From NCBI GenBank assembly GCA_016709145.1, contig JADJEK010000007.1:129328-193327 (forward strand): a DNA stretch of 64,000 nt, written 5' to 3'. Source of the DNA: Planctomycetota bacterium (GTDB lineage: Bacteria > Planctomycetota > B15-G4 > JADJEK01). The notes beneath the pieces were generated by a model. It worked only from the letters and a program-made list of their open reading frames with translations, made no database searches and had not been told where the DNA came from. A program made the position numbers and the translations under genes. Position 1 is the stretch's first letter. Each line of letters starts with the position of its first letter. Below are positions 12,401-62,699 of this stretch, in pieces.

Positions 12401-12772
12401 CAGCGCGACGCGCCGCTTCACCGGCTCGCGCTGCTCCGCCATCCAGATCGTGCCCATGCCGCCTTCGCCGATCTGCTCGAGCAGCTTGTAGCGGCCGATC
12501 TGCGCGCCGGGTTGTTCGGCGACGGCGGACGTGTCATTCGTGACGAGGCCCTCGTGTGGCGGATCCGACGGCGCTCGCGGTGCCGTCGGTCTCGACAAGA
12601 ACCCACCCGCCGCGCGTTCCGCGCGCAGTAGCGCCAGGACCTCCGCACGCAGGCCGGCATCGCCGCCGCACGCGCGGTCCAGCGCGGAATCCCGCTCGGC
12701 CTCCGCGAGGTCGACGATCTCCATGAACAGCCGGCGCGCGTCCCGCCTCGCGTCGTGCCGATCCATTCGCAC
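9425..12772 (-). CDS. Transmembrane Ser/Thr protein kinase with C-terminal 42-residue TPR (TPR_10/12, kinesin-light-chain-like) array
   Basis: Hanks kinase motifs (GEGGMGTIWMA, VALKII, HRDIKPSNVL, DFGIAK, APE-like SPEQ). TM segment VLAGGAVVVALLLGVVAFAW, KQ/EA-rich coiled segment, then about 9 repeats of ...LPAGHP.IA..LNNLA.LLQAQ.KL.EAE.L.REAL.I.R... N-terminus (LFMEIVDLAEAERDSALDRACGGDAGLRAEV) is of the type seen in ECF-sigma-linked kinases. Confidence 0.85.
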   Translation of the reverse strand: MRMDRHDARRDARRLFMEIVDLAEAERDSALDRACGGDAGLRAEVLALLRAERAAGGFLSRPTAPRAPSDPPHEGLVTNDTSAVAEQPGAQIGRYKLLEQIGEGGMGTIWMAEQREPVKRRVALKIIKLGMDTKQVIARFEAERQALAMMDHAHIAKVFDAGATEAGRPYFVMEYIKGIPILEYCDQEKLDTEARLELFSAVCHAIQHAHQKGIIHRDIKPSNVLVTLHDGVPVPKVIDFGIAKATNSELTAKTLFTEHRQMIGTPAYMSPEQAELSGLDIDTRSDIYSLGVLLYELLTGTTPFDMKALLESGFNEMLRTIREVEPHKPSTRISSLGDTGTRTALQRKVDLKKLNALLRGDLDWIVMKCLEKDRTRRYETANGLAADIRRHINDEPVTAGAPSAAYRLRKFVKRNRVQVLAGGAVVVALLLGVVAFAWQAKEASEQRDAAVLAKDSEAEQRKIADAARAEAQKQQGIAQAQEAEATKQAEEARKQEAEAKKQAAIAEAVAKFQTEMLAAVDPDQLPRDPVTKEPLKDTVTVLQAMAAAIKLLDEGSLKDQPLVEAGVRYAIGKTLFALGRYDEAEPNLRKSLAIRRDVLAAGDLQIAFSLNYLGLLLFARNEPVEAEQLHREALAIRRAALPAGHADIGASLNSLGVLLQSEQRLAEAETLFRELLAINRAALPAGHRNIAPGLNNLAMVLQAQNKLTEAEELFREALAIARVALPAGHPHVARGLDNLATLLMARNQPGEAEPLMREALSIRRAAFPAGHPEIDLGVGNLAWLLQAQNKLAEAETLRRETLELRRAAHPAGDPRIAAAMDVLGEVLDAQGKYAEAEQLYREALEISRAADPAGRAGIHSRLGILAEFCWRQGKLEQSIPMFEELLGLSEAELGRHHPNTLTTIANLGVNYRDAGRFTEAIPLLEEAYRAWKLDASLAWIGVALLDASMKAAAEADPESVAKLPALVREMLADARAGLPHDSPELAGQLAAFSQALLIVREWGEAEVLLRECLTIREKTQPEAWTTWNTRSLLGAALLGQKRFAEAEPLLHDGYRGLKEREASIPPHGATPIPDALERLVQLYEALGNASEAAAWRIELEAARAAVTTPTSSGSK
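10300..10960 (-). repeat. Near-identical ~126-bp tandem coding repeats encoding the 42-aa TPR units of the kinase
   Basis: Successive units such as ...cagcttgttctgggcctgcaggagccacgcgaggtt... / ...cagcttgttctgggcctgaagcaccattgcgagattgttcag... / ...ctcactttgcagcagcacgccgaggctgttcag... share long identical nucleotide runs (gcgcttcgcg[ga/gt][ac]gagctgctcggcctcg, gtg[tc]ccggc[gc]gg[gc]a[ag]cgccgcgcg[gc]). Indicates recent expansion or concerted evolution. Confidence 0.5.
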
Positions 12773-13489: not shown

Positions 13490-14845
13490 TCAGTCGTCTT
13501 CCACCGCCGCCGCGCCGACCGCGTCGAAGCGCGCGAGGAACTCGGTGTTGCTGCGCGTTTCCTTCAGCTTGCGCACGAGCAGCTCCATCGCCTCGACGGG
13601 CTTCATGCGGTTCAGCACGCGACGCAGCAGTCCGATCTTGCGCAACGTCGCCTCGCCGAGCAGAAGCTCTTCGCGGCGCGTGCCCGACGCGTTGATGTCG
13701 ATCGCCGGATAGATGCGGCGGTCCGACAGCGTGCGGGACAGCACGAGCTCCATGTTGCCCGTGCCCTTGAACTCTTCGAAGATCACTTGGTCGAGGCGCG
13801 ACCCGGTGTCGATCAACGCGGTCGCGACGATCGTCAGCGAACCGCCACCTTCGCAGTTGCGCGCCGCGGCGAAGAACGCCTTCGGCTTCTCGAGCACCTT
13901 CGCGTCCAAACCACCCGACAGCGTGCGTCCCGAACCGCGGGTCTCGAGGTTGTAGGCGCGACCGAGTCGCGTCAGCGAGTCGATCAGCACCACCACGTGG
14001 CGACCGGTTTCGACCAAACGCTTGGCGCGCTCGTTCACGAGTTCGGCGACGCGCAGGTGGCGATCGCCGGCTTCGTCGTTCGTCGACGCGATCACTTCGG
14101 CCGGAGCCGGGACCGCGCGCTTGAAGTGCGTCGCTTCTTCGGGCCGCTCGTCGACGAGCGCGACCATCAGATGGACGTCGGGATATCCGCGCACGATGCG
14201 GTTCGCGATCTTCTCGAGGATCACCGTCTTGCCGGAACGCGGCGGCGCGACGATCAGCGCGCGCTGCCCGCGACCGAGCGGCGTCAACAGATCGATGATG
14301 CGCAGATTGATGTCGCCGTCGTCGCCTTCGAGCACGAAGCGGTCGCGCGGATCGATCGACGTCAATTGCTTGAACGTCGGCAAGCGCATCGCGTCGTCGA
14401 TCGGCAAGCCTTCGATCGAGTCGATGCGTTCGAGCATCGGCTTGCCTTGGCGACCGCGGCCTGGGATCGCCAGGCCCTTGATCATGCTGCCCGGGCGCAG
14501 CGCGTAGCGACGCGCGAGATTGGCGTGGATGAACGCATCGTTCGGCGTGTCGTCGAAGTCTTCTTTCACGGAGCGCAGGAAGCCGGCGTTGTCCTGCGTC
14601 GGCTCGAACACGCCTTCGACCATGATCGCGTTCGCGAGGTCACGCGGCGGTTGCTGTCCACCGCCGCCACCGCCATAACCACCAGGACCGCCTGGTCCAC
14701 CAGATCCACCAGGCCCACCGGGTCCGCCGGGACCACCGCCCCATCCGCCGCCGTACGAGCCTTGCCCGCCGCCTCCACCATCGAATCGATCGAAGCCACC
14801 GCGATTGCGCCCGCGGCGACGCCGCCCTCTACCGGATCGTCCCAT
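13490..14845 (-). CDS. rho: Transcription termination factor Rho with Gly/Arg-rich (RGG-like) N-terminal low-complexity region
   Basis: CSD-like RNA-binding region (GFLRS...), P-loop APPRSGKT, Q/R loops and C-terminal ATPase core align along the whole length with E. coli Rho. The first ~75 aa are RGRRRRGRNRGGFDRFDGGGGG...GGPGGPGGPGGSGGPGGPGGYGGGGGG instead of the usual N-terminal helix bundle. An in-frame TGA lies immediately upstream of the ATG. Confidence 0.9.
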   Translation of the reverse strand: MGRSGRGRRRRGRNRGGFDRFDGGGGGQGSYGGGWGGGPGGPGGPGGSGGPGGPGGYGGGGGGQQPPRDLANAIMVEGVFEPTQDNAGFLRSVKEDFDDTPNDAFIHANLARRYALRPGSMIKGLAIPGRGRQGKPMLERIDSIEGLPIDDAMRLPTFKQLTSIDPRDRFVLEGDDGDINLRIIDLLTPLGRGQRALIVAPPRSGKTVILEKIANRIVRGYPDVHLMVALVDERPEEATHFKRAVPAPAEVIASTNDEAGDRHLRVAELVNERAKRLVETGRHVVVLIDSLTRLGRAYNLETRGSGRTLSGGLDAKVLEKPKAFFAAARNCEGGGSLTIVATALIDTGSRLDQVIFEEFKGTGNMELVLSRTLSDRRIYPAIDINASGTRREELLLGEATLRKIGLLRRVLNRMKPVEAMELLVRKLKETRSNTEFLARFDAVGAAAVEDD

Positions 14846-15346
14846 GACCTCGTCTTCCGGGTCGCACCCTCGTGGAGAGAGCCGCGACCGTCATCCATTC
14901 CAACTCGAGCCGGCGCCGCACCGCCGATCGACGCGGCACACACGGCAGCGCGTCTTCGATTCCCTGTGCGGAGATCCTGCCGTCCGCGTGGACCGGACTC
15001 CGAGTACGGAGTGACGGCGAAGCGTCGACGGCGAGAAGCTGTGTTCGCAAGTCCTTCCGGGCGGTCCATCGACTTGCCGAAGACCTTGGACCCGGAATCG
15101 CCCTGCCCGTTCGTTTCGGGGGTCAGTCCGAACCGCGGCGGCGCTCGCGTTCGTGCGCGGCACTCGCTCTCGTGCGGCAGGGCCATCAACCAGACGGACG
15201 GAGGGTATTTCGTCGCAGGGGCGACTCCAACAGAAATTTCGACGCGAACACACCGAACGCGAATCCGGATCGCATCCGTCTCGCGACCGGTGCGCGCGCG
15301 GAATTCCTTTCACGCCACCATCGTGACGCGACTCTCATGATCGTCC

Positions 15347-17059
15347 TTGCCTCGGAGGTCGATCATGCTGTTCGTCGCCGCCTTCGTCCGTCCTGTCGTC
15401 CTCGCGCTCGCCAGCGCTACGGGCGAGAGCATCCCGATCGCCGCGGCGCTGCCGCAGGACGCACCCTTGCGCGCCGAGTGGAACGACGCCGCCGGCGCGC
15501 TCGACGCGTGGCTCGCATCACCGACGTGGTCGACGATCGAGCGCAGCTCGGCGTACGCCGAGCGCATGAAGCGCAAAGACATGCGCGACCTGCGAGGCGG
15601 CATCGCGATCGTGGCGGGCTTGCTGAAGGCGCCGGCGCAGCAAGCATTCGCGCAAGCGCTCGGTCGTGAGGTCGCCGCGGCCGCGCTGCCGCGCGATGGG
15701 ACGGACGAACCCGCAGTGATCCTCGCGACGCGCGCCGCGAGCCCCGCGCTGGCGGAGACGCTGGCGCAAGCCATCGAGACGCTGGCCGCGTTCACGCCCG
15801 GCGACGCGGCGGCGCAAGAGGACGACGACGGCGACGGCGTGCGCAGCACGAACGGCCGTGAGTTCCACGCGGTCGTCGGCGACGCCGTCCTGGTCGCGAA
15901 CGATCGCGCCTTGTTGGTCGAATCGATCGCGAGGCTGCGCGGCGCGCAAAGCGGCGCTCCGCGTGCTCCCGGGCTCCACATGCACGCCAACGTCGTCGCG
16001 CTGCGAACAGCCGGTCTGTGGAAGCCCGCACCCACGTCCTACGACAACGCCGTCGGCGCCTTGCTCGCGTACGGCATCGGCAACGCGTTGGAGCACGCCG
16101 AAGCGCTCGATCTCGAACTCGCCCATGGCCAGCGCAGCCTGCGCCTTCGCGTCGTGGCGACCCCGTTCTCGGTCGACGACGCCGCGGCGTGGTTCTTTCC
16201 GTCACGCGCGCAGAGCGTCCCGATCGCGTTGCCGCAGGACACGATCGCGAACCTCGCGCTCACGCGCGACTACCCACGCTTTTACTCCATGCGCAACGAA
16301 CTGCTCGATGCCGACCTCAAGGGTTCGATCGTCGAGTTCGACTCGATCATGGGCATCCTGTTCGGTGGTCGGTCGTTCGGCGACGAAGTGCTGCCCGCGT
16401 TCGGCGACAACGCGACGTTGATCGTCGGACCGCAGGACTACGCGGATCTCGGCACTCCTCCGGGCGTCCAGTACCCAGGCTTCACGCTCGTACTGCAGCG
16501 CAGCGAGGACGGCAAAGACCTGCTGAAGGCGCGCGATCTGTTGACGGCCTTCCAGACCACGCTCGGCGTCGTCAACGCCGATCGAGGTCAGAAGGGTCTC
16601 GAGTCGATGCTGCAGAACTCCGAGCGCGTCGACGGTATCGACGTGGTCAGCGCACGCTTCCTGCTGGACGAGGACGAAACCGGAGCGCCCGACGTGCGCT
16701 TCAACGCCGAGCCCGCGCTCGCCGTGACTCCGACGCACGTGTTCGTCTCGTCGGCGCGCTCGCACCTGCTCGCGCTGCTCGCCGCGCAACGCACGGCCAC
16801 GAGCGCGCAACCGGTCGCGGAACCGCATTCGCAAGTGCGTGTGGAGTTCCCCGCGTTGGTGTCCTTGCTCGGCGCGAACGAAGAGGCCCTGGTCGCGAAC
16901 CGCATGGTCGAACACGCCGAGGACGCGGAGACCGCGCGTGCCGCGATCCAGTTGTTCCTCGATCTCCTGCGTGGGCTCGACGCACTCGACGTCGCGATCG
17001 ACCCGGCGCAAGAAGGCGTGTCCCTGACCGCGGAACTGCGGACGCTGGGAGCGCTGTGA
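15347..17059 (+). CDS. Hypothetical secreted protein (first gene of DUF1800/DUF1501 operon)
   Basis: Signal-like N-terminus (alternative ATG at 15365: MLFVAAFVRPVVLALASA). No recognisable catalytic motif. Stop overlaps the next gene's start (GTGATG at 17057-17061). Confidence 0.5.
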   Translation: MPRRSIMLFVAAFVRPVVLALASATGESIPIAAALPQDAPLRAEWNDAAGALDAWLASPTWSTIERSSAYAERMKRKDMRDLRGGIAIVAGLLKAPAQQAFAQALGREVAAAALPRDGTDEPAVILATRAASPALAETLAQAIETLAAFTPGDAAAQEDDDGDGVRSTNGREFHAVVGDAVLVANDRALLVESIARLRGAQSGAPRAPGLHMHANVVALRTAGLWKPAPTSYDNAVGALLAYGIGNALEHAEALDLELAHGQRSLRLRVVATPFSVDDAAAWFFPSRAQSVPIALPQDTIANLALTRDYPRFYSMRNELLDADLKGSIVEFDSIMGILFGGRSFGDEVLPAFGDNATLIVGPQDYADLGTPPGVQYPGFTLVLQRSEDGKDLLKARDLLTAFQTTLGVVNADRGQKGLESMLQNSERVDGIDVVSARFLLDEDETGAPDVRFNAEPALAVTPTHVFVSSARSHLLALLAAQRTATSAQPVAEPHSQVRVEFPALVSLLGANEEALVANRMVEHAEDAETARAAIQLFLDLLRGLDALDVAIDPAQEGVSLTAELRTLGAL

Positions 17060-22334: not shown

Positions 22335-23266
22335 ACGCGCTCCGTTCGTTGCGCAGCGGCCTCTGCGCGCTCGCGGCACTCCACGCGATCGGCTGCTCGA
22401 GCCCGCAGCCGTCGTTCGAGGACAAGCGCGCGCAGTACCACTTGCGCGTGGGGTCCGATGCGTTCCGGCGCGGCGACCTGAATGCCGCGGCGCTCGGATT
22501 CGAACGCGCGCTCGAAGTCGCGCGCGGTCTCGCCGACGAACGCACCGAAGCCGACGCGCTGCTGCAACTCGGCGCGGTGTTCGACACGCTCGGCAACGCT
22601 TCGCGCGCGGCCGAGCTGTACGACGAGGGCATCGCCGCCTCGAGTCGCGGCGAGTCGCACTACGACCGCGGCGTCCTGGCCGGGCACCTGAATCGCGCGC
22701 GCCAGTGCGTGGCGGCGAACGCGCTCGAGCAGGCCGTGACCCACATCGACGCCGCGCGCGCCGCGGCCGAGCGCATCGGTGGACGCTCCGAGCGCGCCGC
22801 GGTGCTGCGCCACGAAGCGATCGTGCTCGAACACGAGAGCCGATGGGACGACGCCGCCGATCGCGCCAACGAAGCGGAACAACTCGACGCATTGGCGCCG
22901 CGTTCACCCGAGACACTCGCGGGGCGCGCCGACGCCCACTTGATCCTGGGCCGCGTGCTGCGCGCGAAGGGCGACGCCGTGGCGGCGGTCACGCACTTCA
23001 AAGAAGCGGAGCGCCTGGCGCGCGAGCTGTCCGACCGCACGCTCATCGCATTCGCACTCGAATCGAGCGGGACGACGCTGTTCGAACAAGGCCGCTTCAC
23101 CGACGCCCGCGTGTTCTTCCGCCGCGCGTTCGACGTGAACGCGCGCATCCCACGAGCCGACCGAGCGCTCGCCAACGTGGAGTGGCTGAAGCGCATCGCC
23201 GAGAAGACCGGCGAAGCCGGAGACCTCGAGGCGGTGAGCGCTGAAGCGGAGGCTCCGCCTCCGTAG
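22331..23266 (+). CDS. TPR-repeat lipoprotein (last gene of Mla-like operon)
   Basis: Lipobox LAALHAIGC|S. Several TPR-like helix pairs (YHLRVGSDAFRRGDLNAAALGFERALEVAR...). GTG start overlaps the MlaD stop. Confidence 0.6.
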   Translation: MNALRSLRSGLCALAALHAIGCSSPQPSFEDKRAQYHLRVGSDAFRRGDLNAAALGFERALEVARGLADERTEADALLQLGAVFDTLGNASRAAELYDEGIAASSRGESHYDRGVLAGHLNRARQCVAANALEQAVTHIDAARAAAERIGGRSERAAVLRHEAIVLEHESRWDDAADRANEAEQLDALAPRSPETLAGRADAHLILGRVLRAKGDAVAAVTHFKEAERLARELSDRTLIAFALESSGTTLFEQGRFTDARVFFRRAFDVNARIPRADRALANVEWLKRIAEKTGEAGDLEAVSAEAEAPPP

Positions 23267-24276
23267 GCCAGGCCCGGGGGCGCTTCGCTTGACGCCGAAG
23301 GCGAAGGCGGGGGGAACTTCGTTCCCCCGCACCCCCCTCGTTCGACCGCTCGCGGTCGAACGACCAAAGGGGGGCTTCACAAACGAGCAAAGCCCCCCTT
23401 TGGGAACCCCCGTGCCCTTGAGTCGCTCGTGAGACTTGACGCGAAGGGACGTCGAGACCTGCTCTCGCTGCGGCCGTTCAAAGCCGCAGGGGTGGCTTGT
23501 CGAGGGCGTGAAGAGCGACCCCTGTCCATTTCACGCCAGGTGACGTACTGACGAGACGCGTAGAGCGGATCGCCACAGCTGCGGCGGGCTGCTGAACGGC
23601 CGCAGCGAGAGCAGGTCTCGACGTCCCTAGGCGACGGAGTGGTTACTCGGGCACGCACGAGCTTGAACCCGAGGGAGAACTCCGGGTCGCGCTTCGCGCT
23701 CCGCGGTGGCGATTGAAGGAGTGGGGACAGAGCAGATGAGGGGACTGTCCCCACCCGAGCTCGACGGCCATGACGGGGACGGAGGCGGGTCTGTCCCCGA
23801 TGTGTCCCCCGTGACCGCACGCCGTTACCCGGCAGTCGCCGTTCGCACTCCATTCGTTCGACACAATTGCGCAAGTCCTTGGCCCGTCGTCGTGTAGCCC
23901 GCGTGCTTTTGCCGCCGGCAATCGCGCGCGGGTACCCGCGTCGGATTGCCGGCGGCAAATGCACGCGGGCTGCCGTCCCACCCTTGCCCCCGGGGCAACC
24001 GGCTCCCGCGCCGTCGTCACCGCTTTCCATTGTCCCGTTCACGTTCTCGGCCTCCGGTTCGGTCGTCGCCCGCTCGATGCATGGATCGAACGCTCATCCG
24101 GACCCAGTCGCCGGCGACTCCTTCCTCCGGATCGCCGGTCGTTGCCGCGGGAGCTCGGAGTGCCTCGACTCGGCGGTAGCCACTCGCATTGCGTTCGGGT
24201 TAAGCTCCGCCCGCCCCGCTCGCTCTCTCCCGTCCCTTCGCCTAGGGATCGTCCCCCATCTTCGGAGTTCCACCCG
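23267..24276. repeat. Composite structured intergenic repeat, copy A (shares modules with copies at ~47100-47990 and ~60600-61475)
   Basis: Modules in order: G/C hairpins (ttcgaccgctcgcggtcgaa; ggggggcttc...aagcccccc). A ~200-bp element bounded by 35-bp inverted terminal repeats (gacgtcgagacctgctctcgctgcggccgttca ... tgaacggccgcagcgagagcaggtctcgacgtc, ~23434-23634). A ggggacag...ctgtcccc hairpin block (>98 % identical to the inverted copy at 60880-61060). A 76-bp near-palindrome centred on GGGTACCC (~23886-23961) plus a conserved 85-bp tail (23962-24045) shared with copy B. Confidence 0.7.
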
Positions 24277-34083: not shown

Positions 34084-34836
34084 ATGGATCCCCACGCCGA
34101 CGAAGCCGCCAAGGAGAACGCGCTGCGACTCGATCGCTGCGAGAAGGCGGTCGGATATCGCTTCACCGATCGCTCGTTGCTCGAACTCGCGCTGACGCAC
34201 TCGAGCCTGCGCGATCCGTGGACCGAATCGAACGAACGCCTCGAGTACCTCGGCGACGCCGTGGTCGGCTTGGTGGTGTCCGAACACTTGTTCTGCGCGC
34301 ACCCGAAGTCGCAAGAAGGCGAACTCACTCGCTTGCGTTCGTTGATCGTGTCGCGCGACTCGCTCGCGAACGTCGCGAAAGAACTCGACCTGCGCGCGTA
34401 CCTGCGCGTCGGCAAGGGCATGAAGCACGGCAAGTCGCTGCCGCCCTCGCTGCTGACGAACACCGTCGAAGCACTGATCGGCGCGATCTACCTCGACGCC
34501 GGCTTCGAGGCCGCGCGCGCCGTCGTGTTGACGTGGCTCGAGAACCACATCCTGAAGGCCCAACGCAAGCGCGCGATCGAGAACTTCAAAGCGGAGTTCC
34601 AGCACGTCGCGCAGGTGCGTACCGGCAAGACGCCGACTTACGACCTGATCGAGAGCATCGGTCCCGACCACAAGAAGAGGTTCGTGGTGAAGGCGCACTT
34701 GCAAGAGCGCGAGTTCCCCCCGGCGACGGGCTCGTCGAAGAAGCAAGCCGAACAGCGCGCGGCCAAGGAAGCCCTGAAGCTGTTCCGATCCGAAGCGAGC
34801 GTCGATGTCCCGACTGCCGATCCCACCGCTTCCTGA
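34084..34836 (+). CDS. rnc: Ribonuclease III
   Basis: RNase III signature ERLEYLGDAV and C-terminal dsRBD (KTPTYDLIE...KRFVV...GSSKKQAEQRAAKEAL). Length 250 aa confirmed by codon count from the track ORF. Confidence 0.9.
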   Translation: MDPHADEAAKENALRLDRCEKAVGYRFTDRSLLELALTHSSLRDPWTESNERLEYLGDAVVGLVVSEHLFCAHPKSQEGELTRLRSLIVSRDSLANVAKELDLRAYLRVGKGMKHGKSLPPSLLTNTVEALIGAIYLDAGFEAARAVVLTWLENHILKAQRKRAIENFKAEFQHVAQVRTGKTPTYDLIESIGPDHKKRFVVKAHLQEREFPPATGSSKKQAEQRAAKEALKLFRSEASVDVPTADPTAS

Positions 34837-39048: not shown

Positions 39049-39276
39049 TGCGGAAGCGCGGACCGGGGCTCGCGGCGCCGGCGCGGATTCCCACCTCGGG
39101 AATGCATGAAGTCGGTGACCCCGAGGTCCTTGCGCGGTATCCGTCGCCACCTAGAATCCGAAAACTTCCGAACCGTCCTCTACTTGCACCGTTCGAGCGG
39201 TGACGTCGAACTCCATCGTGCCCCAGTCCGGTGCGACGTGCGTTCGACCTTCATCCAGCTCGCGGGAGACCTAGGA

Positions 39277-40824
39277 ATGAGCGAAGCACAGATCCCCGTC
39301 CCCCAGATCCAGGCCACGCGCGCCCATCCGGGCCTCGAAGAGCAATCCTTCGAGGACGCGCTGCGCGAACAACTGCGCAAGGCGCCCTGGCTGATGGTGT
39401 CGATCGGTCTCCACGTGCTGATCGGCCTGATCATGAGCCAGTTCATGACGGGCACGGTCAAGATCAAGAAAGAGACACTCTCGATCCAGGCCAAGATGGC
39501 GGACGAAGAGATCGATCCGATCGAGCCCGAGAAGCCGCCGGAGCCGGAAGAGCAAAAGCCCGAAGAGACGGAGACGGAAGTCGACGACCCGATCGTGCAA
39601 GAAGACGTGGTCGAGACCGAAGAGGTCGCCGACACCACCAACGATCAACCGCTGTCCGACGCCCCGTTCGAGGGCAAGGGCAAGAACGACGTGCTCGGCG
39701 TCGGCGGCGGCGCCGGTGGTCGCTCGGGCGGCAAGTACGGTCGTCGCGGCGGTGGCAAGGGCGGCGGCAAGGCCTCGCAGAAGGCCGTCGACGCCGGTCT
39801 GGAATGGCTGAAGCGCCACCAGAACGAGAAGGGCTACTGGTCGGCCGACGGCTTCTCGCAGATGTGCACGACGAACAAGTGCGACGGCGAAGGTGAGCAG
39901 ATGCACAGCGTCGGCGTCACCGGACTCGCGCTGCTCGCGTTCCTCGGCGCCGGCAACACCGTCAACAACGGCAAGTACAAGAACGTCGTCAAGAAAGGTC
40001 TGAAGTACCTGGTCGACATCCAGGACCAGGAGACCGGCTGCTTCGGCGAGGTCAACTCGCACCAGGCGTTCCTGTACGACCACTCGATCGCGACGCTCGC
40101 GGTCACCGAAGGCTACGGCCTGTCGAAGTGGCCGATCCTGAAGGACCCGGCGCAGAAGGGCGTGCGCTTCATCCAGCAGGCGCGCAACCCCTACAAGGCT
40201 TGGCGCTACGCGTATCCGCCCGATGGCCAGAACGACGTCTCGGTCACGGGCTGGATGGTCATGGTGTTGAAGTCCGCGGAAGACTTCGGCCTGCAGGTCG
40301 ACCATGCCGCGATCGACGGCGCCAAGATGTTCGTCGACGAGATGACCGACGAGAACTCGTGGCGAACCGGCTACATCCAGAAGGGTGGCTACTCGGCGCG
40401 CGAACCCGGCATGGCCGAGCGTTGGCCGGAGCAGAAGACCGAAGCCATGACCGCGGTCGGCATGCTCTGCCGCGTGTTCACGGGTGAGGACACCGAGAAG
40501 AGCCCCGCGTTGCGCGGTGGCGCCGACCTGCTGCGCAAGCAGCTCCCGACCTGGGACGAGAAGGAAGGCACCATCGATTACTACTACTGGTATTACGGCT
40601 CGTACGCGATGTTCCAGATGGCCGGCCAGGACTGGGACAAGTGGCAGGTGAAGATGCTCGACGCGGTCGTCAAGACGCAGCGTCAGGACGGTTGCGAACA
40701 GGGTTCGTGGGACCCGCAGTTCGATCCGTGGGGTCACCGCGGTGGTCGCGTCTACTCGACGGCGATCATGACGCTGTGCCTCGAGGTCTACTACCGCTAC
40801 GACAAGGTCCTCGGCTCGCGCTGA
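39277..40824 (+). CDS. TM-anchored QW-repeat protein (prenyltransferase/squalene-cyclase-like alpha/alpha-toroid domain), paralog 1
   Basis: Cytoplasmic N-terminus, single TM (APWLMVSIGLHVLIGLIMSQF), Pro/Glu-rich linker (PEKPPEPEEQKPEETETE), Gly-rich stretch, then QW-type repeats (LEWLKRHQNEKGYWS; QDQETGCFG; WRTGYIQKGG; CEQGSWDP). ATG is residue 58 of the track ORF. Confidence 0.7.
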   Translation: MSEAQIPVPQIQATRAHPGLEEQSFEDALREQLRKAPWLMVSIGLHVLIGLIMSQFMTGTVKIKKETLSIQAKMADEEIDPIEPEKPPEPEEQKPEETETEVDDPIVQEDVVETEEVADTTNDQPLSDAPFEGKGKNDVLGVGGGAGGRSGGKYGRRGGGKGGGKASQKAVDAGLEWLKRHQNEKGYWSADGFSQMCTTNKCDGEGEQMHSVGVTGLALLAFLGAGNTVNNGKYKNVVKKGLKYLVDIQDQETGCFGEVNSHQAFLYDHSIATLAVTEGYGLSKWPILKDPAQKGVRFIQQARNPYKAWRYAYPPDGQNDVSVTGWMVMVLKSAEDFGLQVDHAAIDGAKMFVDEMTDENSWRTGYIQKGGYSAREPGMAERWPEQKTEAMTAVGMLCRVFTGEDTEKSPALRGGADLLRKQLPTWDEKEGTIDYYYWYYGSYAMFQMAGQDWDKWQVKMLDAVVKTQRQDGCEQGSWDPQFDPWGHRGGRVYSTAIMTLCLEVYYRYDKVLGSR

Positions 40825-40847
40825 GCCGCGAACGAGACTGAACGACC

Positions 40848-40888
40848 GAAGAGGCCCGCGTCGATCCACGATCGACGCGGGCCTCTTC
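40848..40888 (+). terminator. Intrinsic-terminator-like hairpin after QW-repeat paralog 1
   Basis: Perfect 19-bp inverted repeat gaagaggcccgcgtcgatc-cac-gatcgacgcgggcctcttc beginning ~24 nt after the stop. No U-tract (common in high-GC genomes). Confidence 0.5.
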
Positions 40889-41075
40889 GCTTGCATCACG
40901 GTGCGCGCGCCCGAAGTCGGCCACACACAGAACCGCTCGTTCGAACGAATCTCGCGATCCTGCGTGAACCCGTCGCACGACGACCGCGTTGGTTCCACTC
41001 ATCCAAACGGGCGCACATCGACCGCGGCGATGGGAGCACCCGAGGCTTCGAACCCTCGACCTCAGGGAGGACCCC

Positions 41076-42617
41076 ATGCATCGACCTCACGTCCCGGCCC
41101 AAATTCCGTCCCTCGCGCTCCCCCACGACCCAGCGTCGTTCGAGAGCGCCTTGCGCGAGCAGATGCGGCGTGCGCCGTGGCTGCTCGTGTCGATCGGCGC
41201 GCACGCGTTGCTCGGACTCGTCATGAGTCAATTCATGACCGGTGTCGTCCGCGTCAAGCCGACGATGCCCGCGATCATCGCGCAGCTCGAAGACACGGCG
41301 ATCGATCCATTCGAGCCTCCCGAGCCACCGACTCCGCCGGAGACTACGGTGACGCCGACCATGGACGAGCCGACGATCGAGCCCGAGGTCAACGACCAGC
41401 CGACCGACGAACCGACGGTCGCCTCCGATCATCCGAGCGACTCGCCGATCGACGCGCCGTTCGAAGGAACGGGCAAGAACGACGTGCTCGGTGTCGGCGG
41501 CGGAGGCGGCGGTCACGGGCGCCCGGGGAAATACAGCAGATGCACTGCGAGTAGAGATCGAACGACTTCGCAGCGCGCCGTCGAAGCCGGCCTGGACTGG
41601 CTGAAGCGCCACCAGAACGAGAAGGGCCACTGGTCGGCCGCGGACTTCTCGGACGCTTGCGCGACGAACCGCTGCGACGGCGCGGGCGACGCGATGCATG
41701 ACGTCGGCGTGACTGGCCTCGCGCTACTCGCGTTCCTCGGAGCCGGCCACGGCCCCAACGCAGGTCGCTACCAAGGCGTCGTGAAGAAGGGCCTCAAGTT
41801 CCTCGTCGACCACCAGGACGGCGAGACCGGTTGCTTCGGCGAGCCGAACTCGCACCAGGCTTTCCTGTACGACCACGCGATCGCGTCGCTCGCGGTGATG
41901 GAAGGCTACGGCTTGTCGCAGTGGCCGATCCTGAAGGCGCCCGCGCAACGCGGCGTGCGCTTCATCCAGAGCGCGCGCAATCCGTACAAGGCGTGGCGTT
42001 ACGCATTCCCGCCCGATGGGACGAACGACGTCTCGGTGACCGGATGGATGGTCATGGCGCTGAAGTCCGCGCAGGACTTCGGACTCGACGTCGACTCGTC
42101 CGCACTCGACGGAGCCCGTGTCTACCTCGAGGAGATGACCGACGAGCAGTCCTATCGGACGGGTTACCTCGCACGCGGTGGGTACTCGGCGCGCGAACCG
42201 GGGCTCGCCGAGCGCTGGCCGGAGCAAAAGACCGAGGCGATGACCGCCGTCGCGATGCTCTGCCGCGTCTTCGCGGGCGAAGACACCAGTTCGAGTCCGG
42301 CCCTTCGCGGCGGCGCCGACCTCCTGCGCAAGCAGTTGCCGACGTGGGACGAGAAGGCCGGGACGATCGATTTCTACTACTGGTACTACGGCTCCTACGC
42401 CATGTACCAGATGGCCGGCCGCGACTGGGACGCGTGGCAGCCGCGCATGCTGGCGGCGGTCGTGAAAACGCAACGCGACGACGGCTGCGAGAAGGGCTCG
42501 TGGGATCCGCAATTCGATCCCTGGGGCCATCGCGGTGGACGCGTGTACGCGACGGCGACCATGACGCTCTGCCTCGAGGTCTATTACCGCTACGACCGCG
42601 TCCTCGGCGCGCGCTGA
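41076..42617 (+). CDS. TM-anchored QW-repeat protein, paralog 2 (tandem duplicate of 39277..40824)
   Basis: Same architecture. TM region nearly identical to paralog 1 (SFESALREQMRRAPWLLVSIGAHALLGLVMSQFMTG vs SFEDALREQLRKAPWLMVSIGLHVLIGLIMSQFMTG). About 65-70 % identity by eye in the toroid domain (LDWLKRHQNEKGHWS...). Linker differs (Thr/Pro-rich). Confidence 0.7.
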   Translation: MHRPHVPAQIPSLALPHDPASFESALREQMRRAPWLLVSIGAHALLGLVMSQFMTGVVRVKPTMPAIIAQLEDTAIDPFEPPEPPTPPETTVTPTMDEPTIEPEVNDQPTDEPTVASDHPSDSPIDAPFEGTGKNDVLGVGGGGGGHGRPGKYSRCTASRDRTTSQRAVEAGLDWLKRHQNEKGHWSAADFSDACATNRCDGAGDAMHDVGVTGLALLAFLGAGHGPNAGRYQGVVKKGLKFLVDHQDGETGCFGEPNSHQAFLYDHAIASLAVMEGYGLSQWPILKAPAQRGVRFIQSARNPYKAWRYAFPPDGTNDVSVTGWMVMALKSAQDFGLDVDSSALDGARVYLEEMTDEQSYRTGYLARGGYSAREPGLAERWPEQKTEAMTAVAMLCRVFAGEDTSSSPALRGGADLLRKQLPTWDEKAGTIDFYYWYYGSYAMYQMAGRDWDAWQPRMLAAVVKTQRDDGCEKGSWDPQFDPWGHRGGRVYATATMTLCLEVYYRYDRVLGAR

Positions 42618-47099: not shown

Positions 47100-47990
47100 G
47101 GTGCTTCCGCGCACGATCCTCGTTGGAAATCACGCAAACCCGAGAAGTTACCGGTGGTGAGGAGAACGGTCAACGCTCCGGGCGCATGGCCCGATGCCCG
47201 CTCGGCCTTCGGCCGAGATACGAAGGCTCTGCCTCCGTAGGCCAGGCCGGGGCCACAGGCCCCGGGCCCCATCGAACAGACGCCGTAGGCGCACCGCCTT
47301 GCTTGCGATCGAGCCCGCAGGACGAGGCGGGGGGCCTTCCCTTGGGAGTCCCTTCCGCCCTTGGGCCGCTCGGGGGACTTCACGCGAAGGGACGTCGTGG
47401 TTTTGAACCGCGAGCGTGCGGCCTGAAACCGAGGAAGGGTGACGGTTCTCGCTCCGCGCCATCGCTCGAACGACGTTTGGCGCGTTCAGCGTCTGGACGC
47501 GATCGCGCAAGTCGTGGAGCACTCGCGATGTAGCCCGCGTGCGATGACCGCCGGTAATCCGACGCGGGTACCCGCGTCGGATTACCGGCGGTCATCGCAC
47601 GCGGGCTGCCGTCCCACCCTTGCCCCCGGAGCCACCGGCTCCCGCGCCGCCGTCACCGTTTCCCATTGTCCCGTTCACGTTCACGGCCACCGGCGCGCTC
47701 CGTGCTCGCTCGCCGGTGAACCGCTCTCCAACCCTTCGACACGTTCGCGCAAGTCCTTGGCCCGTCGTGGTGTAGCCCGAACTCGTTTGCCGCCGGCAAT
47801 CGCGTTCGGGTAACCGGACGCGGTTGCCGGCGGTGATCGCGTTCGGGCTGGGTCTCGGTCACCGCCTCCTTGGCAACCGCCTCGACTCCGGGTTGGCCGG
47901 CTCCTTGCTCCGCCGGGGCTTTGGCGTTATTCAGGGGCTCGTGGATTCGGCCATCGGCCCGAAGTGCCCCGCGTTCGTCTCCGAGGATCT
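47100..47990. repeat. Composite structured intergenic repeat, copy B
   Basis: Shares ctccgtaggccaggcc block and G/C hairpins with copy A. Contains a perfect 76-bp palindrome agcccgcgtgcgatgaccgccggtaatccgacgcgggtacccgcgtcggattaccggcggtcatcgcacgcgggct (~47522-47597) followed by the 85-bp tail conserved with copy A (47598-47681), and a second imperfect ~90-bp palindrome centred on GGGTAACC (~47757-47846). Confidence 0.65.
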
Positions 47991-47993
47991 TGC

Positions 47994-49588: not shown

Positions 49589-49663
49589 GGGCGGGTAGCT
49601 CAGTGGTAGAGCACGCGCCTGAAAAGCGCGGTGTCGTTGGTTCAATCCCGACCCTGCCCACCA
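49589..49663 (+). tRNA. tRNA-Phe (anticodon GAA), CCA encoded
   Basis: gggcgggtagctcagtggtagagcacgcgcctgaaaagcgcggtgtcgttggttcaatcccgaccctgcccacca. 7-bp acceptor stem (one G-U), D-loop AGCTCAGTGGTAGAGC, anticodon loop cT-GAA-Aa, T-loop GGTTCAATCC. Confidence 0.9.
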
Positions 49664-52754: not shown

Positions 52755-54065
52755 GTGACTCTCAACGTGCTCGTCGTGGACGATATGGCGACGGTGCGGG
52801 ACACCGTCATCCGGATGCTGCGCAAAGCCGGAATGCGCGCCACTCCCGCAGTGTCGGGGACCGAGGCGCTGAACGAGCTCACGCAACGGCAGTTCGACAT
52901 CGCGCTCGTCGACCTCAAGATGGGATCGATGGACGGCATCGAACTGCTGCGTCGCATCCGTGCACGCTGGCCGAAGATCGGTGTGGTCGTGATGTCGGCT
53001 TACGCGACGGTCGGCGTCGCGGTCGAGGCCATGCGCAACGGCGCCTCCCACGTGCTCGAGAAGCCGTTCACGATGGAAGCGCTGCTCGACGCCATCCAAC
53101 TCGCGTCGCACTCGTCCGCACCCGGCGACGGCACGCCCGCGGGCTCACCGTTCGAGGAGCTGGTCGGCCACAGCCGCGAGTTCCTCGACGCGGTCGATCT
53201 CGCGCGCCGCGCCGCGGAGAACGACAAGCCGCTGTTGATCGTCGGCGAGCCCGGCACGGGCAAGGAAGCGTTCGCTCGCGCGATCCACAGCGGCAGCACG
53301 CGCCGCGCGGGACCGTTCGTGGTCCAACGCTGTGCCGGCGGTTCGATCGGAGTGATCGCCGAACTGTTCGGCGTCACCGGCGGCTCGCTCGGTCGCATCG
53401 CGGATGCGGATCGCGGCACGCTGTTCATCGACGAGATCGGTGATCTGCCCGCCGAAGCGCAGGCACGCCTGCTGCGCTTCCTCGCCGACGGCGAGATCGT
53501 GCGCGAGGCCGGACTACCGACGTCGCGCGCCGACGTCCGCGTGATCGCGGCGACCGCGAAGGACCTCGACGTCGAAGTGCGCGCCGGCCGCTTCCGCAAC
53601 GATTTGCTGCTGCGACAGCGCACGTTGCTGCTGCGCTTGCAACCGCTGCGCGAGCGCAAGGCGGACTTGCAGAAGTTGCTCGCGCACTACGCCAAGAAGA
53701 ACCGGCCGCGCGGCGGCAGCGCACCGCGCTTCTCGCGGGACGCGGTGCGCGTGCTCATGACGCACGACTTCCCCGGCAACCTGCGTGAGCTCGAGAACCT
53801 GATCGAGCAAGCTTCGAGCATGTGCGTCGGCGCGGAGATCGGGCCCGAAGTCTTCGAGCGCCTCGGCCTGCGCGGCATCGACGAACCGATCGACACCGAC
53901 GGCGGCGCGATCAAGAACCGCATCGAGGGCGAGGAGCGACGCGCGGTCGAGGAAGCCGTCCAACGCAACCCGCGCAATCTCGCACGCGCGGCGTCCGAGC
54001 TCGGCATCTCTCGCACCACGTTGTGGCGCAAGATGAAGAAGTACGGACTACTCGAAGGCGAGTGA
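52755..54065 (+). CDS. NtrC-family response regulator (receiver + AAA+ sigma-54-interaction-type domain + Fis-type HTH) with degenerate GAFTGA loop
   Basis: Receiver residues DD (VVDDMA), phospho-Asp (ALVDLKM), S (MSAY), K (EKPF). AAA+ Walker A GEPGTGKE, Walker B LFIDEI, arginine finger region. HTH ISRTTLWRKMKKYGL. Loop where GAFTGA is expected reads ELFGVTGGSLG. GTG start. Confidence 0.85.
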   Translation: MTLNVLVVDDMATVRDTVIRMLRKAGMRATPAVSGTEALNELTQRQFDIALVDLKMGSMDGIELLRRIRARWPKIGVVVMSAYATVGVAVEAMRNGASHVLEKPFTMEALLDAIQLASHSSAPGDGTPAGSPFEELVGHSREFLDAVDLARRAAENDKPLLIVGEPGTGKEAFARAIHSGSTRRAGPFVVQRCAGGSIGVIAELFGVTGGSLGRIADADRGTLFIDEIGDLPAEAQARLLRFLADGEIVREAGLPTSRADVRVIAATAKDLDVEVRAGRFRNDLLLRQRTLLLRLQPLRERKADLQKLLAHYAKKNRPRGGSAPRFSRDAVRVLMTHDFPGNLRELENLIEQASSMCVGAEIGPEVFERLGLRGIDEPIDTDGGAIKNRIEGEERRAVEEAVQRNPRNLARAASELGISRTTLWRKMKKYGLLEGE

Positions 54066-54102
54066 GCCGGACGGCCGACACGCCGTCGAACGAGCGGCAC
54101 GT

Positions 54103-54151
54103 GGAACGAGCCTGCCCGCGATCGCCGTGAACGATCGCGGGCAGGCTCGTT
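54103..54151. terminator. Bidirectional terminator-like hairpin between convergent regulator and dehydrogenase genes
   Basis: Perfect 21-bp inverted repeat gaacgagcctgcccgcgatcg-ccgtgaa-cgatcgcgggcaggctcgttc centred in the 104-bp convergent intergenic gap. Confidence 0.55.
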
Positions 54152-54169
54152 CCGCGTTCCGCTCGTCGT

Positions 54170-55219
54170 TCAGAGGGACTTGGCGACCATCGTGCCGATC
54201 TCGTCGGTGGGCAGGACGCCCGCGTTCAGCGACGGGATCTTGCCGCTGACGATCGCCGTCTCGACCGACTTCTCGATCGCGGCCGCGGCGTTCTCTTGGC
54301 CGACGTAGTCGAGCAGCATCGACACGGCCATGATCGACGCGATCGGGTTGGCCTTGTTCAGGCCCTTGTACTTCGGCGCCGAACCGTGGATCGGCTCGAA
54401 CATCGAGACCTGGCCCGGATGCAAGTTGCCCGACGCCGCGATGCCGAGTCCGCCTTGGATCATCGCGCCGAGGTCCGTGATGATGTCGCCGAAGATGTTC
54501 GGCGAGACGGCGACGTCGAACCACTCGGGGTTCTTGATCATCCACATGCACGCCGCGTCGATGTACGCGTGGTCGGTCCGGATGTCGGGGTACTCCTTCG
54601 CGACGTCGGCGAAGGTCCGCGTCCAAATGTCCTGCGCGCGGATCGCGTTGGCCTTGTCGATCAGCGTGACCTTCTTCTGCTTGTTGCGCTTGCGCGCGAC
54701 TTCGAATGCGTAGCGGATCGCGCGCTCACAGCCCTTGCGCGTGTACAGCATCGTCGCGATCGCGACTTCGTCGGGCGTGCTCTGCTTGAAGATGCCACCG
54801 ATGCGCGTGTACGCGTCCTCGGTGTTCTCCCGCACGAACACCATGTCGACGTCTTTCGGCCCCTTGTCCTTCAGCGGGCACAGGCGCTCGTGCAAGAGCT
54901 TCACCGGCCGCAGGTTCACGTAGAGGTCGAGCTTGAAGCGGATGCCGCCGATGATCGCGTGCTCGAGCATGCCGGTCTCGATGCGCGGATCGCCGATCGC
55001 GCCGAGGAAGATCGCGTTCATCTGGCGCAGCTCGGAGAAAACGCTCTCGGGCATCGTCTCCGTCGTCTTCAGGTAGTGCTCGGCGCCGAACGGGTAGACG
55101 ATCTTCTCGTAGTCGAAACCGAACTTCTCGGCCGCGGCGTGCAGCACCTTCATCGCCTCGCGCGTCACTTCCTCACCGATGCCGTCACCCGGAATCACCG
55201 CGACGCGCAGCTTGCCCAT
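54170..55219 (-). CDS. Isopropylmalate/tartrate/isocitrate dehydrogenase-family NAD(P)-dependent decarboxylating dehydrogenase (LeuB-like)
   Basis: MGKLRVAVIPGDGIGEEV N-terminal nucleotide/substrate motif. NIFGDIITDLGA, HGSAPKYKG... motifs. 349 aa, start at M25 of track ORF. Confidence 0.8.
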   Translation of the reverse strand: MGKLRVAVIPGDGIGEEVTREAMKVLHAAAEKFGFDYEKIVYPFGAEHYLKTTETMPESVFSELRQMNAIFLGAIGDPRIETGMLEHAIIGGIRFKLDLYVNLRPVKLLHERLCPLKDKGPKDVDMVFVRENTEDAYTRIGGIFKQSTPDEVAIATMLYTRKGCERAIRYAFEVARKRNKQKKVTLIDKANAIRAQDIWTRTFADVAKEYPDIRTDHAYIDAACMWMIKNPEWFDVAVSPNIFGDIITDLGAMIQGGLGIAASGNLHPGQVSMFEPIHGSAPKYKGLNKANPIASIMAVSMLLDYVGQENAAAAIEKSVETAIVSGKIPSLNAGVLPTDEIGTMVAKSL

Positions 55220-55371
55220 GTCCGCTCCGACTCGATCGTCTTGGCCGATGCCGCGCTCGCGATCGTGCATCTCGCACGGAACCTCGCACACGCGGCGGAA
55301 GCGCGGGATTGTGCGGAATCACCGATGCGACGGCAAGCACCGGCTCGGTTCACCGCGCCGCGCGACCTGCG

Positions 55372-60596: not shown

Positions 60597-60599
60597 GGG

Positions 60600-61475
60600 G
60601 ATGCAACCTCCGATCGAAGAGTGAAGCGCGGGATTTCAGCGGGAGCCGGGCTGGCGCGCAACTGCGGGAACGGGGGAATGGAGGTCGGGGGATTGGCGCG
60701 ACGTACTTTCACCCGCGCGAGCGGAGCGCGGACCGGGTCAGAAGACGTGAACGTGAACGGAACTCTGGAAAACGGTGACGGCGGCGCGGTACCCGGCGGC
60801 ACGAGCGAAGCGGTGGAACGACCTGAACAAGAATGCCGCCGGCAATCCTGTTCGGCCAGCCGGACAAGAACGCCGCCGGGGGACACATCGGGGACAGACC
60901 CGCCTCCGTCCCCGTCATGGCCGTCGAGCTCGGGTGGGGACAGTCCCCTCATCTGCTCTGTCCCCACTCCTTCAATCGCCACCGCGGAGCGCGAAGCGCG
61001 ACCCGGAGTTCTCCCTCGGGTCCAAGCTCGCGCGTGCCCGAGTAACCACTCCGTCGCCAAGGGACGTCGAGACCTGCTCTCGCTGCGGCCGTTCACTCGC
61101 CCGCCGCAGCTGTGGCGATCCGCTGTACGAGTCCCGTCAGTACGTCACCCGGGGCGAAATGGACAGGGGTCGTAAGTCGCAAGCTCAGCAAGCCACCCCT
61201 GCGCCCCTGTGAGAAGGCGAACGGCCGCCGCGAGAGCCCGTTCTCGACGTCCCTTCGCGTGAAGTCTCACGCGCGACTCAAGGGCGCGGGGGTTCCCAAA
61301 GGGGGGCTTCGCTCGTTTGTGAAGCCCCCCTTTGGTCGTTCGACCGCGAGCGGTCGAACGAGGGTGTGGGGGCCTTCGGCCCCCACCTCGCCTTCGGCGT
61401 CTGTGTGACGGGGCCCGGGGGCCGCTGGCCCCCAGCTGCGTGGATGGTCAGCACCATCCGGCCCCGCGGCCCGAG
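60600..61475. repeat. Composite structured intergenic repeat, copy C (inverted orientation relative to copy A)
   Basis: Reverse complement of 60880-61060 is >98 % identical to 23640-23830. 61060-61270 is the 35-bp-TIR element (right TIR degenerate). 61270-61400 matches the G/C hairpin block of copy A. 60740-60880 carries the tail and a degenerate half-palindrome (tgccgccggcaat). Fills essentially the whole 880-bp gap between hbd and the second thiolase. Confidence 0.65.
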
Positions 61476-61477
61476 CG

Positions 61478-62656: not shown

Positions 62657-62699
62657 GGCTGCTGTCCTTCGAAGGCGCGCGATTCCGCGCGCGACGCGC

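Follow-up and report, generated by a model that had tools for sequence, protein, structure and literature searches.

What kind of DNA fills three separate intergenic gaps of a single bacterial contig with much the same hairpin-rich sequence? The question is raised by a stretch of 64,000 nucleotides (nt) from Planctomycetota bacterium (GenBank assembly GCA_016709145.1, contig JADJEK010000007.1, positions 129,328 to 193,327; hereafter the window), in which gaps A (23267–24276), B (47174–47993) and C (60597–61477) all contain one modular non-coding element. Our analysis suggests that these copies probably belong to a lineage-specific, large (∼0.7–1 kb) mosaic intergenic repeat of the kind formed by clusters of repetitive extragenic palindromic sequences (REPs), bacterial interspersed mosaic elements (BIMEs) and REP doublets forming hairpins (REPINs), although bigger and more strictly ordered, and that the family is shaped by gene conversion and hairpin-mediated module turnover. 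The family is non-coding, dispersed and ordered; it has covarying stems, occupies orthologous sites in related genomes, evolves in concert and exchanges its modules. No earlier description of it was found in the literature that was searched.

A codon model, for which the genes of the window itself served as training set, gave 45 gene calls. Of the intergenic gaps left between them, the largest three (A, 1034 nt; B, 820 nt; C, 881 nt) are those that hold the copies, and the family takes up ∼4% of the window. A preliminary description of this DNA had placed the same element in these gaps, and the shared element was found there at about the positions given; the only small correction concerns gap B, for which ∼47100–47990 had been given and which lies between a TPR gene start at 47173 and the def ATG at 47994. 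The composites are delimited as follows.

23267..24090, + strand: copy A, between the stop codon of a TPR gene (23264–23266) and the native upstream DNA of an FG-GAP/ASPIC gene (start 24277).
47174..47850, + strand: copy B, in the divergent gap between a TPR gene (start 47173, − strand) and the peptide deformylase gene def (start 47994).
60717..61477, − strand: copy C, from the thiolase stop codon (61478) to the native DNA upstream of the co-directional 3-hydroxyacyl-CoA dehydrogenase (Hbd) gene (start 60596).

In a gapped self-comparison, A (23291–23811) and C (61401–60877) matched in inverted orientation at 89.3% over 534 aligned positions (E=0), with gapless blocks of 327 nt at 93% and 123 nt at 97%. 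The closest stretch, A 23631–23811 against C 61057–60877, was 98.9% identical across 181 nt, in agreement with the earlier reading of an inverted pair with >98% identity over ∼190 bp. A further core match (79 nt at 78%) brought the alignable total to ∼610 nt; the long match is thus real but falls short of the ∼700 bp of good identity first proposed. Copy B matched A directly over 217 nt at 82% (23860–24076 vs 47496–47712). The 5′ block and large palindrome that B was said to share were likewise recovered, as a 32-nt block ctccgtaggccaggcc common to A and B (91%) and a 76-nt palindrome common to A and B (83%); B further matched C over 84 nt.

The simplest account of such gaps, that duplicated protein-coding genes or decayed pseudogenes are hidden in them, appears extremely improbable. 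Open reading frames (ORFs) of 124–221 aa do cross all three gaps mechanically, and a reverse-strand NTG-GAAAAC motif in the conserved core resembles a start codon; however, at a window G+C of 68% chance ORFs across the gaps are expected, and these had no Pfam match even at E≤1. The best six-frame codon log-likelihood in the gaps ranged from about −0.5 to +0.14, as against +0.55±0.27 in true frames; codon statistics were negative in all frames, and the frames contained stops and were not conserved between copies, the reverse-strand ORFs of the core showing both frame shifts and stops. A Gly-rich reverse-strand core ORF beginning at NTG-GAAAAC was considered individually and rejected: its frames diverge after ∼20 codons, stops occur in several copies, the putative start varies among ATG, TTG and CTG, codon scores are negative and no Pfam match was obtained. 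The view that the gaps hold no credible gene is therefore upheld.

An alignment of ten copies revealed a fixed module order: left GC hairpins, a long hairpin of ∼200 nt, a mid block, GGGGAC hairpins, stem-loop units with a GCCGCCGGC loop and, last, the core. This order was identical in A, C, L007, L008 and L013 (numbers prefixed with L denote sequences from outside the window). The modules recognized in the window are listed below.

23307..23403, + strand: left-end hairpins of copy A, GCGGGGGGAACTTCGTTCCCCCGC; 97% identical to C 61242–61364.
23339–23362, + strand: perfect 24-nt palindrome CGTTCGACCGCTCGCGGTCGAACG at the left end of copy A.
23364–23403, + strand: hairpin with a 13-bp stem, CCAAAGGGGGGC...GCCCCCCTTTGG, at the left end of copy A.
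23440..23633, + strand: long hairpin of copy A, with 41-nt arms (23440–23480 and 23593–23633; 95% in the inverted-repeat search) around a 112-nt interior.
23634..23719, + strand: mid block of copy A, …GGAGTGGTT…AGCTTGAACCCGAGGGAGAAC…GCGATTGAAGG; conserved, not palindromic.
23721..23811, + strand: two GGGGAC…GTCCCC hairpins of copy A (GGGGACAG units).
23894..23973, + strand: REP-like inverted doublet of copy A, GTAG-CCCGCGTGC-(loop with GCCGCCGGC)-GCGCGCGGG and a mirror unit ending in CTGC; 38-nt arms, 89%.
23976..24090, + strand: core of copy A, with the invariant 28-mer GTCACCGnTTnCCAnnGTnCCGTTCACG at 24016–24043.
47530..47609, + strand: first REP-like doublet of copy B, with a GTAG head; a perfect 76-nt palindrome, 43-nt arms, 100% complementary.
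47612..47712, + strand: core of copy B, 86% to A, with the 28-mer at 47652–47679.
47772..47850, + strand: second REP-like doublet of copy B, GTAG-CCCGAAC… / …GTTCGGGCTGG.
61043..61269, − strand: long hairpin of copy C, with a chimeric left arm carrying an arm variant found in the related genome MAG-32 (see below).
60877..61057, − strand: mid block and two GGGGAC hairpins of copy C, 98.9% identical to A 23631–23811.
60822–60879, − strand: degenerate GCCGGCGGC-loop palindromes of copy C, within 60717..60879.
60717–60800, − strand: core of copy C, with the 28-mer at 60752–60779.

Several of the short GC hairpins start directly 3′ of the upstream stop codon, and in L017, L020 and copy B the left-end 13-bp-stem hairpin has a stem variant, GGAAGGCCC/GGGCCTTCC, that preserves pairing. 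The mid block is ∼85 nt long and non-palindromic, and agrees at 96% between window copies; copy B carries the variant found in L017 and L020, and its segment 47332–47399 is 98.5% identical to L017. The long hairpin is missing from B, where GGGACGTCG is joined to TGGTTTT near 47397. The number of GGGGAC…GTCCCC hairpins varies from one to three per copy. The core (∼115 nt), whose 28-mer is common to all three window copies, is followed by the native upstream DNA of the next gene. On its 3′ side stand tandem CGTTCA/CGTTCT hexamers, two to four between copies (e.g. L010 ∼500–530, L002 and L014), a variation that looks like slippage.

The GCCGCCGGC-loop stem-loops are optional modules, which in the window take the form of inverted doublets of 76–80 nt starting with GTAG. 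The 21 units that were scored have perfect stems of 6–12 bp and loops of 9–21 nt around GCCGCCGGC. This loop type was present in 20 of them, the exception being a unit of L020 with the loop GTCGCCGGC, and it is combined with at least five different stems, each self-complementary. A GTAG head was found on four scored units (47530 and 47772 in the window, and two in L020), as well as on the A unit at 23894 by eye; two other units had GCAG and one had CTAG.

The family extends beyond the window. A scan of 185,579 species-representative genomes with the core 28-mer returned 16 contigs, all from 'Planctomycetota bacterium isolate new MAG-32' (JAEUIB01), a metagenome-assembled genome (MAG), so that the family reaches at least 16 contigs of one related MAG. 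The same 28-mer had no match in the metagenome and viral collections. A pattern spanning the long-hairpin junction identified one European Nucleotide Archive contig in the metagenome scan (L020) and no viral contig, and blastn searches against plasmids, phages and 5,426 E. coli genomes gave no match. All copies seen were intergenic (at least 16 composites in MAG-32 and three in the 64-kb window), which bears out the earlier view of a genuine dispersed, modular, non-coding and structured family. In 13 of the 16 MAG-32 contigs the contig end lay at most 576 nt upstream of the core, with the core oriented alike, as is the mark of a repeat that breaks short-read assembly; L007 spans the whole gap. 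Judged by the codon model and Pfam, the core end faced the start of a co-oriented gene in 12 of 18 copies and the 3′ end of a convergent gene in the other 6, a bias that is not significant. A strict rule that the element lies upstream of and co-oriented with a gene, true of 3/3 copies in the window, was dropped on these overall counts. The genes flanking the other copies were diverse and included MoaA, an extracytoplasmic function (ECF) sigma factor, peptidase S9, AnmK, an ABC ATPase and a GDSL lipase, among others.

Folding of the element is extreme. Relative to shuffled sequence, composite A (834 nt) gave z=−11.9 on the + strand and −13.5 on the − strand, in keeping with the dense GC hairpins noticed at first; the long hairpin of copy A alone has a minimum free energy of −142 kcal/mol, with z=−10.7 (+) and −12.0 (−). 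In both cases the two strands fold equally well. Within the long hairpin, helix 2 (22 bp, eight copies) showed strong covariation: in 9 of the 22 pairs both partners were substituted, in no pair only one of them, the share of paired cells was 95.8% as opposed to 30–52% with the partner columns slid, and none of 500 shuffles reached the observed value. The swaps (GC↔CG, AU↔UA, GC↔UA and CG↔UA) were mostly transversions without G-U intermediates. The arms were perfectly complementary in five of the eight copies even though they vary between copies, and those of copy C and L007 are chimeras of two variants. The core, compared across 17 copies, showed no conserved structure (consensus energy −7 kcal/mol, no compensatory pair), so that covariation was strong in the long hairpin and absent from the core.

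Could the copies be genes for large structured non-coding RNAs or cis-acting RNA? The composite, or its long hairpin, would then be transcribed from one strand and its folded RNA would act, for instance, in processing or stability or in association with the nucleoid, as does the REP325-derived naRNA4 of E. coli. The z values of about −11 to −13, the significant covariation of the long hairpin, and the small hairpins with conserved loops and covarying stems all fit such RNAs. A mild co-orientation with the downstream gene (the 12 of 18 copies above) and with the upstream gene (4 of 5 assembled cases) points the same way, and most E. coli REPs are transcribed according to one report (PMC4550694). 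Against this, no Rfam family was reached at gathering score in A, B or C (in the whole window only a tRNA matched at that score), and permissive scans of the three copies returned only miRNA-precursor-type or generic hairpin models far below cut-offs. A helix that covaries mostly by transversions, with no G-U intermediates, is atypical of RNA-level compensation; there is no strand signal, the core lacks conserved structure, the orientation bias is not significant, and module content differs greatly between orthologous copies. Moreover, RNase III, for which the window has a gene (34084–34836), would cleave transcripts of the perfect 36–41-bp stems. As judged from sequence, the long-hairpin covariation is explained equally well by a DNA-level palindrome as by an RNA fold; the strict Watson-Crick upkeep and the strand symmetry seem to favour a palindrome process at the DNA level over selection at the RNA level. 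We therefore regard the RNA interpretation as unlikely.

The positions of the copies in related genomes speak to their age. At locus A, the gene downstream of the copy has its ortholog on MAG-32 contig L014 (identity of 95% for the protein and 93% for the nucleotide sequence), and there too the element lies upstream of this gene; window A differs from L014 by an extra 41-nt GGGGAC hairpin, the first of its two, and by a ∼170-nt insert with the REP doublet, both of which L014 lacks. At locus B, the contig of a 92% relative (L026) begins inside a REP unit corresponding to doublet 2, 171 nt upstream of def, and in a ∼70% relative (L027) the gap measures 190 nt and holds no modules. Copy C sits inside a conserved row of the fatty-acid beta-oxidation type (acyl-CoA dehydrogenase / thiolase / Hbd / PPIase / enoyl-CoA hydratase / thiolase), where the thiolase–Hbd gap could be followed with Hbd identity as a guide.

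Window C: Hbd 100% (reference); gap of 881 nt with the full composite.
L017: Hbd 92%; gap of 827 nt with left hairpins and long hairpin, then a TCCCGTTCA/TCCCGCGCA 9-mer array instead of the core.
L022–L025 (four Logan assemblies): Hbd 93%; palindrome and core variant, all contigs breaking 283 nt upstream, in a GGGGAC hairpin.
L021: Hbd 89%; other hairpins, the contig breaking 321 nt upstream.
L018 (a ∼70% relative): Hbd 71%; gap of 177 nt of unrelated sequence, with no modules.

The window Hbd itself is 100% identical to a protein annotated 'MAG: Planctomycetes bacterium' and, in this one-protein comparison, those of cultured Saltatorellus-clade strains (Pla163, Engelhardtia and Poly30) are 65–67% identical to it. 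The array that replaces the core in L017 (∼9830–9960) is a degenerate tandem series of more than 12 units, and its 9-mer resembles the core motif GTCCCGTTCA. Modules differ in the neighbouring spacer too: between the acyl-CoA dehydrogenase and thiolase genes, the window has a mere 43 nt (62657–62699), as against a 277-nt mini-mosaic in L017 (7719–7994) that is built from two dimerized GGGGAC hairpins, four GCGCACGACGG units and one GC hairpin; the difference is a module-invasion polymorphism. The short thiolase–hbd spacer of L018 (9824–10000) has two copies of its own unrelated direct repeat of ∼55 nt.

Loci A and C are thus filled at the same positions in genomes 7–10% diverged at the nucleotide level, which argues that the insertions are not recent. 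Relatives with 89–95% identity in the flanking proteins were filled at A and C, and B was filled in L026; a ∼70% relative was free of modules at B and C but too diverged to define junctions. No target-site duplication or clean empty site could be delimited. The composites are old residents of fixed intergenic sites in a narrow clade, and their modules turn over fast; between close relatives, palindromic modules are gained, lost, duplicated or swapped.

These observations bear directly on the idea of a non-autonomous transposable element, whether MITE-like or a REPIN or dimer of terminal inverted repeats (TIRs) moved by a Y1 transposase, that inserted recently as a unit into the three gaps. The copies are dispersed in unrelated intergenic contexts, A and C are near-identical, the long hairpin has 41-nt inverted repeats and is absent from copy B, modules are present or absent between close relatives, and the GTAG heads and GGGGACAG units resemble published substrates of REP-associated tyrosine transposases (RAYTs) and the related 'TIRYT' proteins. 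Yet all inverted repeats of the composite are internal, none is terminal, and only the long-hairpin sub-unit has inverted arms (of 41 nt); with neither TIRs nor target-site duplications, the whole-unit version is largely contradicted. The occupation of loci A and C in diverged genomes and an A–C identity above that of orthologs, which points to conversion, also stand against it. The long hairpin was separately considered as a MITE with its empty site in copy B and rejected, as B retains part of one arm together with only a 3-nt GTG microhomology, which looks like a slippage deletion and not an empty site. No match was found in phage, plasmid or viral collections, nor was a transposase found in any sequence examined: no transposase or integrase occurs among those of the 45 called window genes that match Pfam (8 do not), as the preliminary description had it, and no transposase among 19 genes flanking other copies or in the existing annotation of ∼60 kb of relatives. 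A recently inserted transposable element is accordingly quite unlikely, and the suggestion of recent MITE-like spread is not borne out.

The near identity of copies had been ascribed to either recent spread or gene conversion, and at these loci it is the latter that the comparison favours. In a 157-nt block comprising the right half of the long hairpin and the mid block, window A and C were 96% identical, whereas A and its positional ortholog L014 were 87% identical; L014 in turn was 92–97% identical to other MAG-32 copies, and the block has genome-specific diagnostic variants. Flanking genes of the source genome match those of MAG-32 at 93%. That paralogs are closer than orthologs argues for gene conversion among dispersed copies, which homogenizes them within each genome.

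The unstructured core invites one more interpretation, in which it is, with its tandem CGTTCA hexamers, a cassette for protein binding or regulation that is shared by many genes and lies upstream of them, be it an operator, a promoter or a site for nucleoid proteins. It is conserved as primary sequence and free of structure, in all three window copies a co-oriented gene starts 120–320 nt downstream of it (12 of 18 copies overall have a co-oriented gene start), its hexamer number varies between copies, and in L017 a related 9-mer array stands in its place. On the other side, 6 of the 18 copies have a convergent gene whose 3′ end points at the core, and the core's ∼85–95% identity over >100 nt goes far beyond operator needs. 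The flanking genes are functionally unrelated, which weakens the idea of a shared promoter or operator. No sigma-70-like promoter was found in the core. A sigma-54-like TGGCAC…GC in the core was discarded on direct reading, since its spacing is GG-N8-GC and not N10 and it is not conserved, and no IHF consensus was evident in the core by inspection. Overall, we consider a regulatory cassette very unlikely. A search for intrinsic terminators was also unproductive: each copy gave a single weak candidate, and shuffled sequence gave as many.

Under the mosaic-repeat reading that we prefer, modules would turn over through single-stranded hairpin intermediates. These might arise from replication slippage across palindromes, from an HUH/Y1 transposase of the RAYT/TIRYT type encoded elsewhere in the genome, or from both, and templated correction from arm to arm would maintain the Watson-Crick stems. 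Once transcribed from the upstream gene, the hairpin array might act as a 3′-end barrier, terminator or mRNA stabilizer, and the element might also insulate neighbouring transcription units.

Several points weigh against the mosaic-repeat reading. With no RAYT or other transposase in the window, among the 19 flanking genes or in the ∼60 kb of annotated relatives, a mobilizing enzyme is hypothetical. GTAG heads occur on only 4 of the 21 scored units, and on none from MAG-32. The mid block and core (∼200 nt together) are not palindromic, and ordinary REP/BIME biology leaves both unexplained, while an order fixed over ∼700 nt is unlike that of the short, loosely built BIMEs. Concerted evolution is argued from one clean positional ortholog pair and from clustering by genome, and the terminator or insulator role is one that we purely infer.

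The composite might instead be itself the functional unit, and not a build-up of selfish hairpins. In one version it would be an ordered 'super-REP' of ∼0.7–0.9 kb, transcribed and cut into hairpin RNAs or else organizing the chromosome by way of bound nucleoid proteins; in another it would be moved piecewise as single-stranded DNA by a dedicated HUH transposase. In the latter version, the unstructured core and mid blocks would be recognition or priming sites, and templated repair between arms would account for the perfect Watson-Crick covariation. We hold this view to be quite improbable; if true, large domesticated mosaic elements of this sort would form a new class in Planctomycetota.

Other features of the window were noted in passing. 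The only Rfam or ARAGORN match is a tRNA-Phe (GAA) at 49589–49663. A Ser/Thr-kinase gene with TPR_10/TPR_12 domains (9425–12766, − strand) contains six tandem 126-nt units (10177–11030; 63–73% identity) that correspond to 42-aa TPR repeats and look ordinary. An inverted repeat at 54090–54166 (35 nt, 94% complementary, 7-nt loop) lies between a sigma-54 activator gene (52755–54065, + strand) and a convergent isocitrate/isopropylmalate dehydrogenase gene (54170–55270, − strand); it is unrelated in sequence to the repeat family and is probably a bidirectional terminator. Adjacent paralogous genes at 39130–42617, with weak SQHop_cyclase_C matches, share a 300-nt direct repeat at 78% (39775–40074 vs 41568–41867). 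Finally, in the region 13490–15364, a divergent gap of ∼520 nt separates the rho gene (− strand, its ORF reaching to 14845) from the gene that begins at 15365; this gap has no similarity to the repeat family.

The family is of practical as well as evolutionary consequence. It breaks short-read assemblies clade-wide (at least 13 contigs of MAG-32, and contigs of five independent Logan assemblies, end within the repeat), and recognizing it would help MAG assembly and annotation in this lineage, with fewer spurious ORF calls in the gaps. Copy C, placed within an operon-like gene row, may be expected to affect transcription of the downstream genes. The family also offers a clear natural case of concerted evolution of dispersed non-coding repeats, and arms that stay perfectly complementary through many substitutions bear on how repeats persist and on whether their driver is a Y1 transposase or replication and repair.

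Repeat families of the REP/BIME/REPIN type have been much studied in proteobacteria and hardly in Planctomycetota. Similar mosaic repeats are the rhizobial RIMEs and the pneumococcal BOX elements, and the Correia elements of Neisseria are an example of MITEs. With MITEs, the present repeat shares a non-coding, dispersed, intergenic and inverted-repeat-rich character; it differs from them in being a composite without TIRs or target-site duplications, in its stability at orthologous sites and in a size above their usual range.

A conserved tetranucleotide, GTAG (or CGTC), marks one end of REPs of the tagged type. REPs tagged with GTAG have stems of 5–13 bp and loops of 2–20 nt, commonly occur as dimers, are RAYT-associated and are present in the Planctomycetes-Verrucomicrobia-Chlamydiae (PVC) superphylum (Di Nocera et al. 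2013, PMC3733652); the TIRs flanking RAYT-like TIRYT genes share the motif GGGGWSAS (PMC3733652). REPINs are inverted REP doublets forming hairpins, in which compensatory changes on either side are 'common' (Bertels and Rainey 2011, PMC3116915). Our ∼35-nt stem-loops with stems of 6–12 bp are REP-like, the GTAG head of the window and L020 units matches the tagged REPs, and the inverted doublets that form one long hairpin (23894–23973, 47530–47609 and 47772–47850) match REPINs, as do compensatory arm changes and stems that differ between units yet stay self-complementary. Unlike REPs and REPINs, 17 of the 21 units lack GTAG, the loops are long (9–21 nt), conservation lies in the loop (GCCGCCGGC) and not in the stem, each unit is part of a larger ordered composite, and no RAYT was seen in the window or among the 19 genes flanking other copies. 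The GGGGACAG units, which are found in clusters and as inverted dimers, fit GGGGWSAS, a motif of just 8 nt. The long hairpin is laid out like a TIR dimer around a spacer, but its arms lack GGGGWSAS and no TIRYT gene was seen in the window or among the genes flanking other copies.

Enterobacterial BIMEs are bound by IHF, DNA gyrase or Pol I. They combine REPs with other motifs in a mosaic (PMC2817692, PMC3333891), and gene conversion has long been proposed for REP evolution (Higgins 1988, as cited in PMC3116915). Like BIMEs, the family is extragenic, often lies 3′ of genes, varies in module number between copies and appears subject to gene conversion, and in the 10-copy alignment palindromic units of alternating orientation are interspersed with other conserved motifs to form a mosaic. 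In contrast to BIMEs, which measure tens to a few hundred bp, the repeat spans 0.7–1 kb, has no sequence similarity to E. coli DNA (blastn, 5,426 E. coli genomes), keeps its module order over ∼700 nt and between genomes, and includes two long non-palindromic conserved blocks and a ∼200-nt hairpin. The original impression that this is not a known REP element therefore requires qualification: the palindromic modules are REP/REPIN-like, some of them GTAG-headed, and the mosaic design is BIME-like, while the large ordered composite that they build differs from both.

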